Sequence record: NC_031928.1
Direction: 5' to 3' (one strand)
Source of the DNA: Escherichia phage WG01
DNA: 64,000 nucleotides
The position numbers and the translations under genes were made by a program. Below, piece after piece: positions 6,905 to 37,055 of the stretch (its first letter is position 1; the number at the start of each line of letters is the position of its first letter). The notes below the pieces were generated by a model, which had not been told where the DNA came from, made no database searches, and worked only from the letters and a program-made list of their open reading frames with translations.

Positions 6905-7230
6905 TTCGCTGCCTTAACAATTTTCAGGTCAACGAATTTTTTCTTACGTTGGTTTTTCATACGACGGATGGTTTTATCCGTGATTTCACCAGGGGCCCAA
7001 GCTTTAGATTCTACACCAAAGGCAGCGACATCGAATTCATCGAGGATATATTGAACCAGGATTTCACGAATACCGTTCTTACCAATTTTCTGGTCTTTAG
7101 AGTGCATGATAGGTAACAGTTCAGCAACCCATTGGTCAAGAACCTGAGGAGTTACAAAACCTGTTTTCATCAGTTCGTTTACTTTATCGAAAGCGAAAGA
7201 GTTCAGTACGTTTTTAATAGCTTGTGACAT
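6901..7230 (-). CDS. hypothetical protein (109 aa)
   Basis: ORF track start is TTG; ATG at 7230 has GAGGA RBS and an early promoter just upstream. Confidence 0.4.
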   Translation of the reverse strand: MSQAIKNVLNSFAFDKVNELMKTGFVTPQVLDQWVAELLPIMHSKDQKIGKNGIREILVQYILDEFDVAAFGVESKAWAPGEITDKTIRRMKNQRKKKFVDLKIVKAAK

Positions 7231-7264
7231 AATAATTTCCTCAGTTTTAAAGTTATAATCCGTA

Positions 7265-7300
7265 GGACCATTATACTCTGGTCCCAAGAGTTTGTAAACT
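7265..7300 (-). promoter_or_regulatory. T4-type early promoter cassette
   Basis: minus strand GTTTACA, 17 nt, TATAAT; dyad GGACCAGAG/TATAATGGTCC. Confidence 0.6.
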
Positions 7301-7499
7301 ATTTTTGACTCATTGCACCTTTCCAGCCTTCGTACATAGATGCAGCTGAAATTAATAAAGCGCCTGAACAACTTGAATATTTGTGGTTCCAAAACCAGTT
7401 CAGAAAAACTTCGTCATCAATACCTTGGGCTATCATATTTTCAAAGAACTGACGACGAGCTTCAGCAATTCGCTGTGATAATTTAGATTCAGGATTCAT
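7299..7499 (-). CDS. hypothetical protein (66 aa)
   Basis: ATG start. Confidence 0.35.
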   Translation of the reverse strand: MNPESKLSQRIAEARRQFFENMIAQGIDDEVFLNWFWNHKYSSCSGALLISAASMYEGWKGAMSQK

Positions 7500-15437: not shown

Positions 15438-16418
15438 TTATTTCAGAAGTGTAACTTCAGCGATTTCGCTCCAGTCATTTTTATCGGTGGCAATGAAGTC
15501 CGCCAGATAAAGAGCTGTACGTAATGATACGTTACGAAGACGAGATACATTAGCCTTCATCCATGCTAAAGCTTGGTAAGTCTCGGCATCAGTCAGACCA
15601 CGGTTTTGCATCATATCAGTGGACAGGATAACGTCTTCAACACGAACCATAATCTCTTCGTTAGAGTGAACTCCGAGGTCTAAGTAAACTGAACGAGATA
15701 CTAAAGCCTGGAGGTGTGGAGCAAGTTTAGTTCCACGCTCTAATTCACGGTCAATATCAACGTTGGTGATGAACACGATGGTGCCTTCATACTCAAATTC
15801 TTTATCGATATTTTTATCATCAAGATAAGAACTTGAAGTGCTCCAGCACACCTTACGTTTTTCACCAGTATCCAATGCTGCTTTTAACAGGTTCAGGATA
15901 TCCATATCAGAGAATACATCAACATCATCAATAAGAAGAACACTATTAGGGCCGCGGTTATTCCAAAGCTGCTCGTAAAGACCGATTCCACTAATCTTTC
16001 CGTTGATTGATTTATATTCGATAGTTTCATTTTCGTGGGCATTCTGTAATGCTTTATCCAAAGAATATGTTTTACCAATACCTGCGGCACCAGAGATTAT
16101 AAGGGAACGAATTTTACCATCGATGATTCCGTTAGTCATCATGTTCATTACTTTAAAACGTTTGTTGATACGGTGTTTCATTTCTTCAGCGGATTCAGTA
16201 ACCATTGCAGGAGCTGGTGCGCCTTCGGTTTCGATATCACATTTGAATACCCATACACCACGTTCAACACCATCAATCTGTACGAATACCTTGCCATCAC
16301 CGAGGTGAGCTTCGGATTCATGAATTTTGTTAGGGAACCAGGTTTTACCTGAACTCATGAACGTACCAGAGATTTCATTACCGCGATAGATACCTTTGTT
16401 GATTTTGATAGTTAACAT
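15438..16418 (-). CDS. P-loop NTPase (326 aa)
   Basis: ATG at 16418 with GGAGA RBS; Walker A GAAGIGKTYS and Walker B VLLIDDVD; upstream ORF-track codons lie in the promoter. Confidence 0.55.
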   Translation of the reverse strand: MLTIKINKGIYRGNEISGTFMSSGKTWFPNKIHESEAHLGDGKVFVQIDGVERGVWVFKCDIETEGAPAPAMVTESAEEMKHRINKRFKVMNMMTNGIIDGKIRSLIISGAAGIGKTYSLDKALQNAHENETIEYKSINGKISGIGLYEQLWNNRGPNSVLLIDDVDVFSDMDILNLLKAALDTGEKRKVCWSTSSSYLDDKNIDKEFEYEGTIVFITNVDIDRELERGTKLAPHLQALVSRSVYLDLGVHSNEEIMVRVEDVILSTDMMQNRGLTDAETYQALAWMKANVSRLRNVSLRTALYLADFIATDKNDWSEIAEVTLLK

Positions 16419-16444
16419 TATATTCTCCATTTCACTCAGTAGAT

Positions 16445-16485
16445 TTGATAGGTCTATAATAACATGTTTAAAGCAGATGTACACA
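16445..16485 (-). promoter_or_regulatory. promoter cassette variant (GTGTACA -35, TGCTTTA box)
   Basis: same dyad core GATAGGTCTATAATAACATG; -35 reads GTGTACA and a MotA-box-like TGCTTTA overlaps it. Confidence 0.45.
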
Positions 16486-16486
16486 C

Positions 16487-16717
16487 TTATTTTGCAATAA
16501 TTTCACAGAAGCCATCTTTATAGCGGGCCCATGTTTCACCATTTACTGTATAAAGAGCAGCTTTACGGCCATTAGGCATAACAACTTGTTTACCTTTGTT
16601 TTTAGTTACTGCTTCAATAATTTCGTATTCTTCAGCACGATCAGCTTTAAAGGTATCTTCCAGAGCGATCAAGTTAGTAGTGTAAGAACCGTATTTGTAA
16701 TTTTTGATAGCGTACAT
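16487..16717 (-). CDS. hypothetical protein (76 aa)
   Basis: ATG ORF between two identical promoter cassettes. Confidence 0.4.
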   Translation of the reverse strand: MYAIKNYKYGSYTTNLIALEDTFKADRAEEYEIIEAVTKNKGKQVVMPNGRKAALYTVNGETWARYKDGFCEIIAK

Positions 16718-16757: not shown

Positions 16758-16796
16758 TGATAGGTCTATAATAACATGTTTAAAGCAGATGTACAC
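16758..16796 (-). promoter_or_regulatory. promoter cassette variant (duplicate of 16445..16485)
   Basis: near-identical ~40-bp copy. Confidence 0.45.
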
Positions 16797-16816: not shown

Positions 16817-16838
16817 AAAAAAGGCCCGAAGGCCTTTT
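16817..16838 (-). terminator. rho-independent terminator (bidirectional shape)
   Basis: GGCC-CGAA-GGCC hairpin flanked by A6 and T4. Confidence 0.55.
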
Positions 16839-16839
16839 A

Positions 16840-17850
16840 TCATTTATAATACGAGTTATGGTTTTCTAGGTAAACCTGCTCAACGAACTTGTCCCAGAAC
16901 TTCATGTCTACCTTCTCAGGCATACCGTTCTTGGCCGCCCAGATGGCATTGGTTTCGACTTCATCAACGATAGCTTCAAGTTCGGCCTGTACATCTTTAA
17001 AAGCATGAAGCCCTTGTTTGATTTCAAGGATAAACGGTGCTGTACGTAAAGGATATTGGAGGTCACCTGTTTGATAGATTTCCTTCAACTGGTATCCAGC
17101 ACGATAAGCGTGGCTCAGAGCTTTCCAGTCAATACCTTCGTTAGCTTCAGCTTTACGAGCACGTTCACCATATTCCGCATCAAGCTTATTCAGGGATTGC
17201 TTGAGCTCTGTAATTGATAACGTTGTTTGGTACTTACGTCCGAGAACAGTATAGAACGTTTGCGGACCTGTTTTCTCATGGTTATGGAATACCCATTCAC
17301 AGAACTCATTTTCAGGGAGTCTGTGTTTGATATCTTCTACCTTAGTACGACGAAGTCTATCAGGGATTCCTTCTTGATAATCGACCCACTGTTCAGGAAT
17401 CTGGTTAACAATAGCCAGTACACCACGCAGTGCAGCTAGTCGAGAACCCTTAACACCATATTTAGAAGCTTGCTTACGGACGTACCCTAAATAGGCTTTC
17501 ATGTTAGTCGTATAGAACCGAGAACGATTGTCTTGGATAAATTTCCATACACCAGGTAAATCAGATTTAACCACCAGTTCAGGTGGAGTGTGGAGCATAT
17601 CCAGAGCAACGGTTTCGCCTTCAGCAGCCAGTTTAAAGAAATATTTCAGACTGTAAAGCTCGTGGTCAACATCATCTTTAGTGTTTTTGGAAGCAGTGTT
17701 ATTCGTATTCAGGTTGGTATGGTTCATAGCCGTACCTAACAGAATATCACGCGGATGTGGAACAAAGATTTCTTTAAAATCAACATCAGATTCTGGAGTA
17801 CTTGTTCCATAAAGGTGGCTACCGAAGTAGCCTTTCATAACTGTTCTCAT
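16840..17850 (-). CDS. hypothetical protein with minimal nucleotidyltransferase-like motif
   Basis: 336 aa; N-terminal GYFGSHLYGTSTPESDVDF fits the pol-beta superfamily pattern hG[GS]x(9-13)Dh[DE]h; remainder predicted helical. Confidence 0.45.
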   Translation of the reverse strand: MRTVMKGYFGSHLYGTSTPESDVDFKEIFVPHPRDILLGTAMNHTNLNTNNTASKNTKDDVDHELYSLKYFFKLAAEGETVALDMLHTPPELVVKSDLPGVWKFIQDNRSRFYTTNMKAYLGYVRKQASKYGVKGSRLAALRGVLAIVNQIPEQWVDYQEGIPDRLRRTKVEDIKHRLPENEFCEWVFHNHEKTGPQTFYTVLGRKYQTTLSITELKQSLNKLDAEYGERARKAEANEGIDWKALSHAYRAGYQLKEIYQTGDLQYPLRTAPFILEIKQGLHAFKDVQAELEAIVDEVETNAIWAAKNGMPEKVDMKFWDKFVEQVYLENHNSYYK

Positions 17851-18299
17851 TCTTTGTCCTCGAAGTGGATTACCGGACAGACCTTAGATTTACGAGCTTT
17901 AATGTATTGAATAACGATGTTTTCTTTAGTTTCTCGGCCTTCACGCTCAGCTTGAATACGTTGCCATTCCTTTTCTTCTCTACGGGCATCATACCATGCG
18001 TGTAAATTCATCGCACCGAATGCCAAACCAATGGATAGCGCAATAATAAGAGCTATTGCAACCAATCCTAAAACAAACCCTAGACTCAACAGAACAGGGG
18101 TACTTAATACAAAGAAATGCTCTAATACACCAACACCTGCAACAGTTAATCCAAAAAGCGTACTACCTGCAACAACAGCACAAGCAAAACAAGCCCAAAC
18201 CATTTTCCAGAAGTAAGCACACAAAGAGTGTGGTCGAGAATGACGGTCATAAAAACGGTCATGAAGTTTAGCGTGCCAAGAGTTTGCATTGATAATCAT
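17847..18299 (-). CDS. membrane protein (150 aa)
   Basis: ATG with AAGGA RBS; three or four hydrophobic helices. Confidence 0.45.
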   Translation of the reverse strand: MIINANSWHAKLHDRFYDRHSRPHSLCAYFWKMVWACFACAVVAGSTLFGLTVAGVGVLEHFFVLSTPVLLSLGFVLGLVAIALIIALSIGLAFGAMNLHAWYDARREEKEWQRIQAEREGRETKENIVIQYIKARKSKVCPVIHFEDKE

Positions 18300-18309
18300 A
18301 ATATTTTCC

Positions 18310-18870
18310 TTAAGAGTTCATAGTTGGGATAACAGAGTTCAGATAAGAGACTAAAACTTTTAGTTCGTCTTTAGTAAATACCACTTCACTTTCACCATCG
18401 TGTCTTTGGGTCAAGGATAACAAATCACGGCCCTGATGTTGATACACGGTTAATTCAGTATCATAATTCAGTTCTTCTTCATCACCTTCAAAGGTTTCAC
18501 TAGAACGAATCACGGCATCTTGGCCAGGGACTTTCCATTCAACTTCCGGCTTGCATTCTTCCTGGAACAGTTTGAAAATACAATCAAAGAATTTATCAGA
18601 ATCGCTGATGCTCAGACATTCAATACCATTTTCCAGATTAAACCCGGTTTCATTTTTATAGATATAGGCAAACATATCATCATTGATATCGATAGGAGCA
18701 CTAGCCCGACCGTTAAGATAATCGTGTCTATCTAAAACCATTAAATCATAAAGCGGTTTAATATCAGCGATAGTCAGTACGATTTTATCGTCTTCTTGTG
18801 AAAGCTCAATTGCGTTATTAACTACTTCAGCGGACAGTTCGCCAAACAATTCAGTTGTTTCAATAATCAT
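18310..18870 (-). CDS. hypothetical highly acidic protein (186 aa)
   Basis: ATG with GAGGA RBS; strong D/E excess. Confidence 0.45.
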   Translation of the reverse strand: MIIETTELFGELSAEVVNNAIELSQEDDKIVLTIADIKPLYDLMVLDRHDYLNGRASAPIDINDDMFAYIYKNETGFNLENGIECLSISDSDKFFDCIFKLFQEECKPEVEWKVPGQDAVIRSSETFEGDEEELNYDTELTVYQHQGRDLLSLTQRHDGESEVVFTKDELKVLVSYLNSVIPTMNS

Positions 18871-19640: not shown

Positions 19641-19680
19641 TTGATAGGTCTATAGTATCATGTTCCTAGAGGATGTAAAC
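19641..19680 (-). promoter_or_regulatory. early promoter cassette
   Basis: GTTTACA -35, TACTATAGACC -10 region, same cassette. Confidence 0.55.
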
Positions 19681-19687
19681 ACCTAAA

Positions 19688-19714
19688 CGAAAAAAGGTCC
19701 CACCGAAGTGAGAC
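19688..19714 (-). terminator. rho-independent terminator
   Basis: 8-bp stem with CGAA-type loop followed by T6 on the minus strand. Confidence 0.55.
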
Positions 19715-19720
19715 CTTTGA

Positions 19721-36898: not shown

Positions 36899-36973
36899 TG
36901 GTATCCCGCCCTGGGATCGAACCAGGACCGCAAACTTAGAAGGATCGTATGCTATCCATTACACCAGCGGGAC
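36899..36973 (-). tRNA. tRNA-Arg (anticodon TCT)
   Basis: minus strand cloverleaf with anticodon loop CTTCTAA, T-loop GGTTCGATCC and encoded CCA. Confidence 0.8.
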
Positions 36974-36978
36974 GTAGT

Positions 36979-37055
36979 TGGTGACCCAGACCAGATTTGA
37001 ACTGGTAACCTTTCCCTTATGAGGGGACTGCTGCTAACCATTGAGCTACAGGGCC
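36979..37055 (-). tRNA. tRNA with CAT anticodon (Met or lysidine-type Ile)
   Basis: minus strand GGCCCTGTAGCTCAATGGTTAGCAGCAGTCCCCTCATAAGGGAAAGG...GTTCAAATC...CCA. Confidence 0.7.

Follow-up and report, generated by a model that had tools for sequence, protein, structure and literature searches.

tRNA repair by Pnkp and Rnl1 of phage T4 was the first RNA repair pathway to be discovered. The family of nucleotidyltransferases (NTases) termed RlaP (Pfam PF10127), which was reportedly defined by Burroughs and Aravind in 2016, is represented in a 64,000-nucleotide stretch of Escherichia phage WG01 (NC_031928.1; the whole stretch is called the window in the following) by the gene analysed here, an open reading frame (ORF) for a protein of 336 amino acids (aa) on the minus strand.

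The removal of the wobble nucleotide by the nuclease RloC was proposed in 2008 to defeat T4 repair (PMC2610378), and RlaP has been predicted to restore nucleotides lost to RloC-type trimming ahead of ligation (PMC7824862). According to a preprint from December 2025 the RlaP proteins from P. fluorescens and P. aeruginosa (PfRlaP and PaRlaP) add one to two nucleoside monophosphates (NMPs) or deoxynucleoside monophosphates (dNMPs) to the 3'-OH of RNA, are inactive on 3'-phosphorylated RNA and on DNA, and favour the anticodon-side end of a cleaved-tRNA mimic; the crystal structure of PfRlaP exhibits an N-terminal NTase domain and a C-terminal helical domain that form a cleft (10.64898/2025.12.29.696909). 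The same work places T4 NrdC.11 in cluster 5 of the PF10127 sequence similarity network, with its function given as unknown (10.64898/2025.12.29.696909). Orthologues of nrdC.11 had already been recognised as COG3541 NTases in 2006 (PMC1524935).

The window gene is the orthologue of nrdC.11 in a JS98/JS10-type T4-like phage. Thus, it does not encode a new protein, i.e. the gene is already named, its family is already assigned and the family has recently been characterised. Its product represents a divergent, long subfamily of RlaP, and with moderate confidence we suggest that it adds nucleotides to RNA 3' ends in the course of RNA repair.

The nrdC.11 gene of phage WG01 and its product

The ATG-started ORF, which was correctly located by the original prediction, is preceded by the sequence GAGGA 6 nt ahead of the start codon. 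The protein and T4 NrdC.11 (NP_049709.1) are 81% identical over a gapless alignment of 336/336 aa, and RefSeq names both of them 'nucleotidyltransferase'. A 3.8-kb stretch around the gene has 99.5% DNA identity to Shigella phage PSD9 and is ~93% identical to Escherichia phages JS10 and JS98 (Straboviridae, Tevenvirinae, Dhakavirus), in which the orthologous gene is annotated as nrdC.11. The protein matches phrog_388 ('nucleotidyltransferase', E = 1.4e-132), and synteny with JS10 and T4 supports membership in this orthologous group. Homologues are found in 1,546 phage records (tblastn), 1,442 of them with at least 80% coverage. The Pfam RlaP model PF10127 is matched with 42.5 bits (gathering score 23; E = 8e-11), and it is present in all 120 of 120 homologues among the matches listed. 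The gene and the elements of the protein discussed below are located as follows.

16840..17850, minus strand: coding sequence (CDS) of the NrdC.11 orthologue, a long-form RlaP-family Pol-beta NTase of 336 aa (ORF, identity to T4, PF10127, phrog_388)
17776..17826, minus strand: codons for residues 9-25, with the G-S turn (G10, S11) and the putatively metal-binding DxD motif (D22, D24) of strand beta2 (conservation, AlphaFold2 model)
17665..17667, minus strand: codon of D62, the third catalytic acidic residue (conservation, AlphaFold2 model)
17221..17403, minus strand: variable beta-rich insert peculiar to the long form, residues ~150-210 (column entropy, AlphaFold2 model)
17101..17172, minus strand: conserved C-terminal block Y-G-x-R ... 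D-W-K-x3-H-A-x-R, residues 227-250 (conservation)

Many GenBank and UniRef records label NrdC.11 homologues 'thioredoxin', and one reads 'HNH homing endonuclease'. Neither a thioredoxin nor an HNH domain is detectable in the window protein by a Pfam scan, and these labels have probably been carried over from the names of the neighbouring genes nrdC and mobD.

The original prediction based its assignment to the Pol-beta superfamily on the pattern hG[GS]x(9-13)Dh[DE]h, and residues 9-25 (FGSHLYGTSTPESDVDF) indeed fit it. This is the single occurrence of the pattern in the window (105 six-frame ORFs of at least 100 aa, 21,809 aa in total), and 84 of 20,000 shuffled NrdC.11 sequences (0.4%) contain it. 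The pattern is a loose one; taken alone the motif is suggestive only, and its weight comes from homology. Conservation was evaluated in two alignments, one with 116 sequences from a word-indexed search (25-88% identical to the query) and one with 147 representatives from an exhaustive search (33-56% identical to the query and at most 50% to one another), and the motif residues are conserved in both. Among the 147 representatives G10, D22 and D24 are invariant and S11 is found in 145. The third catalytic acidic residue, whose position the original prediction had left to be located, is D62, which is invariant in the 116-sequence alignment and a D in 141/147 and an E in 6/147 of the representatives.

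The AlphaFold2 (AF2) model calculated from the 116-sequence alignment contains the NTase core and is of high confidence (predicted local distance difference test, pLDDT, 91.0; predicted template modelling score, pTM, 0.81). Strand beta1 (residues 2-9) is followed by the G-S turn, beta2 (residues 23-30) bears D22/D24, and D62 opens the strand comprising residues 61-67. The top matches of the model among solved structures are NTases with Pol-beta fold, i.e. HalB, 3c18, kanamycin NTase and LinB. Because of the PF10127 score, the conserved motif together with D62, the confident model and these fold matches, the assignment of NrdC.11 as Pol-beta-superfamily NTase with a catalytic-grade motif, as predicted originally, is supported by sequence and model. 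Neither of the two results that the original prediction had named as contradicting it, i.e. a predicted structure devoid of the NTase core or motif residues that vary among homologues, was obtained.

The remainder of the protein had been called unfamiliar, which holds only in part. The gene as a whole is a conserved T4 gene, but for the C-terminal 200 residues there is no match to a Pfam model or, by sequence, to a solved structure. Searches of PDB sequences with the single protein or the 116-sequence profile returned nothing meaningful, the PDB set being one without the coordinates of PfRlaP. Residues ~150-210 form a variable insert, which has the highest column entropy and 10-28% gaps in the 147-representative alignment, is modelled with strands at residues 154-157, 165-168, 184-191, 195-202 and 205-208, and has no equivalent when the order of secondary-structure elements is compared with the short-RlaP model. 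It is followed by a strongly conserved block, in which G228 (143/147), R230 (146/147), K243 (146/147), H247 (147/147) and R250 (147/147) stand out. Judged from this conservation, residues 227-250 are a candidate for the face that binds the nucleoside triphosphate (NTP) and/or RNA.

Long and short RlaP proteins and their genomic partners

NrdC.11 and the canonical short RlaP share the Pol-beta NTase core with aligned G-S, D-x-D and third-D motifs, G10/S11, D22, D24 and D62 aligning onto G37/S38, D49, D51 and the invariant D82 of short RlaP. Moreover, the models suggest for both an architecture of two domains, an NTase and a helical one, and the genes of both forms show linkage to those for RNA ligases and RNA repair. 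NrdC.11 is ~75 residues longer than short RlaP, lacks the N-terminal helix and contains an extra element at residues ~150-235, composed of the variable beta-rich insert and a helix. The PF10127 match in NrdC.11 spans only profile positions 25-143 of 249, i.e. the N-terminal half; the canonical 259-aa short RlaP scores 223 bits over positions 1-248. An hhalign comparison of the two forms covers only the first ~90 residues (E = 1e-4, 57% probability), and the C-terminal halves alone give no significant profile-profile alignment (E = 0.24). With the insert removed the full-length profiles align with E = 3e-4 and 38% probability, the K/H/R motif being one residue out of register. The AF2 models of both forms (pLDDT 95.3 for short RlaP) are colinear in secondary structure apart from an insert of ~80 residues, and short viral NTases from BFVD match the NrdC.11 model with target-normalised template modelling scores of 0.5-0.73. 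Short RlaP has an invariant K157-x3-Y161-A162-x-R164 motif, so that in both forms the pattern K-x3-[H/Y]-A-x-R starts at the second residue of the equivalent helix. Not being significant by sequence, this equivalence is one that we infer. Taken together, NrdC.11 constitutes a divergent long RlaP subfamily with a homologous core. As the profile-profile alignment of the C-terminal halves is not significant, homology of the C-terminal domains is deduced from the colinear secondary structure of the models, which suggests that these domains are probably homologous as well.

The window and T4-like genomes show no linkage of nrdC.11 to RNA-repair genes. We therefore sampled the long subfamily in other genomes, using a subset of 18 aligned sequences, which yielded 60 bacterial loci and 80 viral contigs, and analysed 47 bacterial loci with a full-length gene and 79 viral ones (126 in total). 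In bacteria, a short RlaP gene lies directly downstream of the long one in 24/47 loci according to a profile search (22/42 in a stricter count of adjacent genes), in the same orientation and usually overlapping the long gene by 4 nt, whereas it is found in none of the 79 viral loci. Examples are the following pairs.

L014, 8001-8984 and 8981-9769, same strand: long and short RlaP, bacterial locus
L018, 7935-8978 and 8975-9742, same strand: long and short RlaP, bacterial locus
L011, 6001-6984 and 6981-7760, same strand: long and short RlaP, bacterial locus

Long and short RlaP thus form a conserved two-paralogue module without any other conserved neighbour. Since both co-occur as adjacent bacterial genes their roles should be non-redundant, and the arrangement suggests that they act as heteromer or sequentially.

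The second partner is a gene for an HD protein of the SpoT/RelA-hydrolase type (PF13328, HD_4, ~170-210 aa), which is the immediate neighbour of long RlaP in 22/126 loci, in the same orientation and often overlapping it by 4 nt. It matches the N-terminal region of TIGR00691 (E = 1e-27 to 1e-29) and occurs in 15/79 viral loci (within 1 kb in 14 of them) and in 7/47 bacterial loci, all of which lack short RlaP, i.e. the short-RlaP and HD partners are never found at the same bacterial locus. In one viral contig the two proteins are fused.

L093, 1035-2702, plus strand: fused RlaP-HD protein of 556 aa (RlaP 33-159, HD_4 360-444), viral contig
L081, 2965-3468: HD gene beside long RlaP
L146, 10960-11496: HD gene beside long RlaP
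L064, 9017-9520: HD gene beside long RlaP

RNA-repair genes constitute the third group of neighbours. An RNA ligase is encoded in the flank in 21/79 viral and 9/47 bacterial loci, and 30/79 viral loci contain some RNA-repair gene; recurring neighbours are T4-type Pnkp (13 loci), RtcB (6), Rnl-type ligases, the bacterial Pnkp-ligase, Hen1, RtcA and Ro60. Unbiased clustering of 715 neighbour genes ranks short RlaP first, followed by HD_4, T4-type Pnkp, RtcB and Rnl ligase. RNA-repair genes have a density of 6.5-7.5 per 100 kb within 3 kb of long RlaP versus 0-0.2 per 100 kb at a distance of 6-10 kb (P = 1.7e-7 for viral and P = 1.3e-4 for bacterial loci). This concentration connects not just the short but also the long subfamily with the healing and sealing of RNA ends. 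NUDIX genes (near long RlaP in 5 viral contigs) and several unannotated, viral-only clusters recur as well. HEPN genes are neither among the recurring neighbours of the 126 loci nor beside the window gene.

In Sinorhizobium phage phiN3 (L002, 1646-11101) the NrdC.11 homologue is located between two annotated RNA ligase genes and is immediately followed by genes for a homing endonuclease and a NUDIX hydrolase.

A proposed role in RNA repair and competing explanations

Based on these findings we suggest the following scenario. NrdC.11 would be produced early, from the last gene of a six-ORF unit, and D22, D24 and D62 would coordinate two divalent metal ions. The enzyme may then transfer one to two NMPs from NTPs to the 3'-OH of a broken RNA in a template-independent manner, the likeliest substrate being a tRNA half generated by a host ribotoxin of the RloC type, which removes a nucleotide in addition to cleaving. 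Prior to this step the phage Pnkp (pseT) would have to convert the 2',3'-cyclic phosphate or 3'-phosphate end into a 3'-OH, and afterwards RNA ligase 1 or 2 (Rnl1/Rnl2) would reseal the RNA; in other genomes the HD partner may take over the 3'-healing role of Pnkp. The nature of the substrate, the number of nucleotides added, the cooperation with Pnkp and Rnl and a counter-defence role are deduced from relatives and gene context. The mechanism fits the published prediction for RlaP (PMC7824862) and addresses the proposal made for RloC in 2008 (PMC2610378).

Several observations weigh against this scenario. The biochemistry reported for RlaP is that of short Pseudomonas enzymes. Only the first ~90-135 residues of NrdC.11 can be aligned with short RlaP, and as the C-terminal domain and the insert are the probable determinants of substrate specificity, the two could differ in this respect. 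A profile scan found no RNA-repair gene among the ORFs of the window, and although JS10 encodes rnlB, pseT and rnlA, these genes are at least 58 kb away from nrdC.11, T4-like genomes being likewise unlinked. Furthermore, the nrdC.11-mobD.3 block can be deleted from T4 and is thus dispensable in the laboratory (PMC9825161). Finally, a template-independent enzyme would rarely restore the correct wobble base, which is modified in tRNA-Lys, as the authors of the preprint concede (10.64898/2025.12.29.696909).

The same chemistry could also serve the 3' acceptor end of tRNAs, where NrdC.11 would rebuild or extend CCA ends that have been damaged or blocked by host defences, e.g. after the removal of a 3'-(pyro)phosphate added by enzymes of the toxSAS/CapRel type. 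This is suggested by the adjacent SpoT/RelA-type HD genes, the RlaP-HD fusion and the fact that some small alarmone hydrolases reverse the pyrophosphorylation of the tRNA CCA end (10.1101/2021.04.30.441581). Moreover, genes for a tRNA nucleotidyltransferase and an HD protein are found at a distance of 4 kb from the homologue in Aeromonas phage CC2. Such an HD partner is, however, absent from the window and from T4-like phages, the HD enzyme could equally well provide generic 3'-phosphate healing for anticodon-loop repair, and a CCA-adding enzyme neighbours long RlaP in only 1 of the 126 loci. In addition, PfRlaP favoured the anticodon-side end of the tRNA mimic over the acceptor 3' end (10.64898/2025.12.29.696909). 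Nor do the tRNA genes of the window, which lie 5 nt apart, suggest that NrdC.11 completes the CCA ends of phage tRNAs, since both encode them. We regard a function at the acceptor end as unlikely.

36899-36973, minus strand: tRNA-Arg(TCT) with encoded 3'-CCA
36979-37055, minus strand: tRNA-Met(CAT) with encoded 3'-CCA

Alternatively, NrdC.11 might nucleotidylylate a protein or a small molecule, like MntA does with HEPN toxins or kanamycin nucleotidyltransferase (KNTase) and LinB with antibiotics, and might in this way inactivate, for example, a host anticodon nuclease of the HEPN type. KNTase/ANT(4'), LinB, the MNT antitoxin (7ae9) and an NTase/HEPN protein (4nqf) are indeed among the structural neighbours of the model, and the NCBIfam MntA model gives a weak match over the GS motif (E = 0.068). 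Nevertheless, an MntA-type antitoxin was rejected, as NF047752 scores 13.1 bits over 18 residues (cut-off 60) and HEPN genes are lacking both beside the window gene and among the recurring neighbours of the 126 loci. The genes around NrdC.11 relatives give no hint of antibiotic modification. Nucleotidylylation of a protein or a small molecule appears quite improbable. We consider it still less probable that NrdC.11 makes a signal molecule, i.e. a nucleotide or an oligonucleotide, de novo, like HalB with its oligodeoxyadenylate or a cGAS/DncV-like nucleotidyltransferase (CD-NTase) with its cyclic nucleotides, be it as decoy or as signal against host defence and perhaps together with the membrane protein encoded upstream. 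The structural match to HalB extends over 125 residues with 14% identity and reflects the shared NTase core, and no CD-NTase is among the top fold matches. The PADLOC models yielded no match either (PADLOC-DB v2, 2023, which may predate Hailong), and for this reason a reading as CD-NTase or defence system was dropped. A Hailong-like pairing was also rejected since the upstream membrane-protein ORF is conserved in close T4-like relatives only, is similar to no PDB chain, Hailong HalA included, and is missing beside T4 nrdC.11 (where mobD is found) as well as from distant long-RlaP loci. Thus, from the three kinds of enzymes named by the original prediction the cGAS/DncV-like and the antitoxin-type ones find no support, while tRNA-modifying enzymes come closest in spirit.

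Returning to the addition of nucleotides to RNA 3' ends during repair, we tentatively propose a more general scheme, which may well not hold, namely that long RlaP is a functionally distinct subfamily that is always paired with a partner healing 3' ends, i.e. short RlaP in bacteria, in many viruses the SpoT-like HD protein, at times as a fusion, and in T4-like phages Pnkp. If so, the classical Pnkp-Rnl1 system of tRNA repair in T4-like phages would have a third component, NrdC.11, which has been overlooked, and the phage would be able to reverse lesions deemed irreparable, such as the removal of the wobble nucleotide by RloC or the blocking of 3' ends by toxSAS. If NrdC.11 restores a missing nucleotide, T4-like phages already possess a counter-measure to RloC-type nucleases, and this counter-measure would reside in a gene which more than 1,500 sequenced phages carry, often under the wrong label 'thioredoxin' or 'hypothetical'. 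Within the window itself the finding is an ordinary one, a conserved and named gene, and its value lies in the correct annotation; beyond that, the partners of long RlaP, i.e. short RlaP, the SpoT-like HD protein and Pnkp, suggest a role in countering ribotoxins that remove nucleotides.

The transcription unit and comparison with known systems

The surroundings of nrdC.11 comprise the following elements.

19718..19644, minus strand: terminator hairpin (19718..19693) and related promoter-like cassette (19682..19644; promoter-like site with TG extension at 19679..19652)
17847..18299, minus strand: ORF for a predicted membrane protein of 150 aa in the same transcription unit, its stop codon overlapping the nrdC.11 start (ATGA); phrog_944 'membrane protein', E = 4e-57
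16838..16819, minus strand: intrinsic-terminator-like hairpin 1 nt past the nrdC.11 stop codon, with 8-bp stem, UUCG loop and T-run
16796..16758, minus strand: promoter-like cassette downstream of this terminator, TGTACA-16-TATTAT with TG extension, predicted to serve the next ORF (16487..16717)
16487-16717, minus strand: ORF of 76 aa between nrdC.11 and nrdC.10, provided with a GGAGA ribosome-binding site and a promoter-like cassette of its own; phrog_33156, E = 2e-18
16484..16446, minus strand: identical 39-bp copy of the cassette, 312 bp further on and ahead of the nrdC.10-like gene; none expected by chance
15438-16484, minus strand: nrdC.10-like ORF with weak matches to AAA/STAND-NTPase and helix-turn-helix (HTH) models, all below the Pfam cut-offs

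According to the original prediction the gene is insulated by a promoter cassette upstream and a terminator downstream. The terminator is present (AAAAGGCC-UUCG-GGCCUUUU followed by UUGGGUUU; minimum free energy -12 kcal/mol, z = -2.36), but the promoter side has to be revised. The start codon of nrdC.11 overlaps the upstream ORF, so that both are translationally coupled, and the 900 bases upstream of it contain no promoter-like site on the minus strand; the first such site, at 18809..18782, matches only weakly (9/12) and lies within the mobD.1-like ORF. The cassette actually lies downstream of the gene, and the nearest upstream module of terminator and promoter is five ORFs away. Thus, nrdC.11 is not insulated individually but is the last gene of a six-ORF unit, which probably starts at the module at 19718..19644.

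The 39-bp cassette reads GTGTACATCTGCTTTAAACATGTTATTATAGACCTATCA and ends in TATAGACCTATCA, its second copy comes immediately after the 76-aa ORF's stop codon, and the module at 19.7 kb (GTGTTTACATCC...CATGATACTATAGACCTATCA) is related to it. As a terminator with UUCG tetraloop immediately precedes both the 16.8-kb and the 19.7-kb copy, the cassettes look like part of a modular terminator-promoter unit that punctuates the early region. Judging from the sigma-70-like -35 element and the extended -10 element they may be early-type T4 promoters. In T4 middle promoters the MotA box is spaced by ~12 nt; a reading of the cassette as MotA box was rejected, as TGCTTTA is only 7 nt away from TATTAT, and a sigma-70-like promoter with extended -10 element fits better.

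Homologues of the membrane-protein ORF are present in 704 records of T4-like phages and adjoin nrdC.11 in the sampled records with comparable positions. Since the ORF is missing beside T4 nrdC.11 and from distant loci, its adjacency can be ascribed to synteny within the lineage. The 76-aa ORF is possibly an unannotated small gene, as the RefSeq annotation of JS10 contains no CDS in the matching gap (7012-7430 of the locus). The GTG listed as start of the nrdC.10-like ORF is located inside the promoter-like cassette, and the alignment with phrog_1250 begins at residue 23, so the real start is probably the internal ATG near 16428 (MENIM...).

Compared with other NTases, NrdC.11 shows only 8-16% identity to the antibiotic adenylyltransferases, i.e. 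kanamycin nucleotidyltransferase ANT(4'), LinB and 3c18. HalB of the Hailong system (PDB 9dbh/9dbj) comprises 217 aa, has no counterpart of the C-terminal 200 residues of NrdC.11 and produces oligodeoxyadenylate in a defence system, whereas NrdC.11 is encoded by a phage gene whose relatives neighbour RNA-repair genes. The class II CCA-adding enzyme with C-terminal HD domain is likewise a Pol-beta NTase that performs untemplated addition to the 3'-OH of RNA, and its pairing of NTase and HD has a parallel in other genomes, where the SpoT-like HD protein is encoded next to long RlaP or fused to it. However, a Pfam scan of NrdC.11 gives no match to the PolyA_pol or CCA head-domain families, and the HD partner belongs to another HD subfamily (HD_4) than that of the CCA enzyme and is missing in T4-like phages. 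The closest counterpart is T4 NrdC.11, which has the same length (336 aa) and whose gene occupies the same place on the early strand, between the nrdC.10-like and mobD.1-like genes. In T4 the homing endonuclease gene mobD precedes nrdC.11, the 150-aa membrane-protein ORF being found there in the window instead, and, unlike in T4, the 76-aa ORF and the duplicated promoter-like cassette separate nrdC.11 from nrdC.10 in the lineage of the window.

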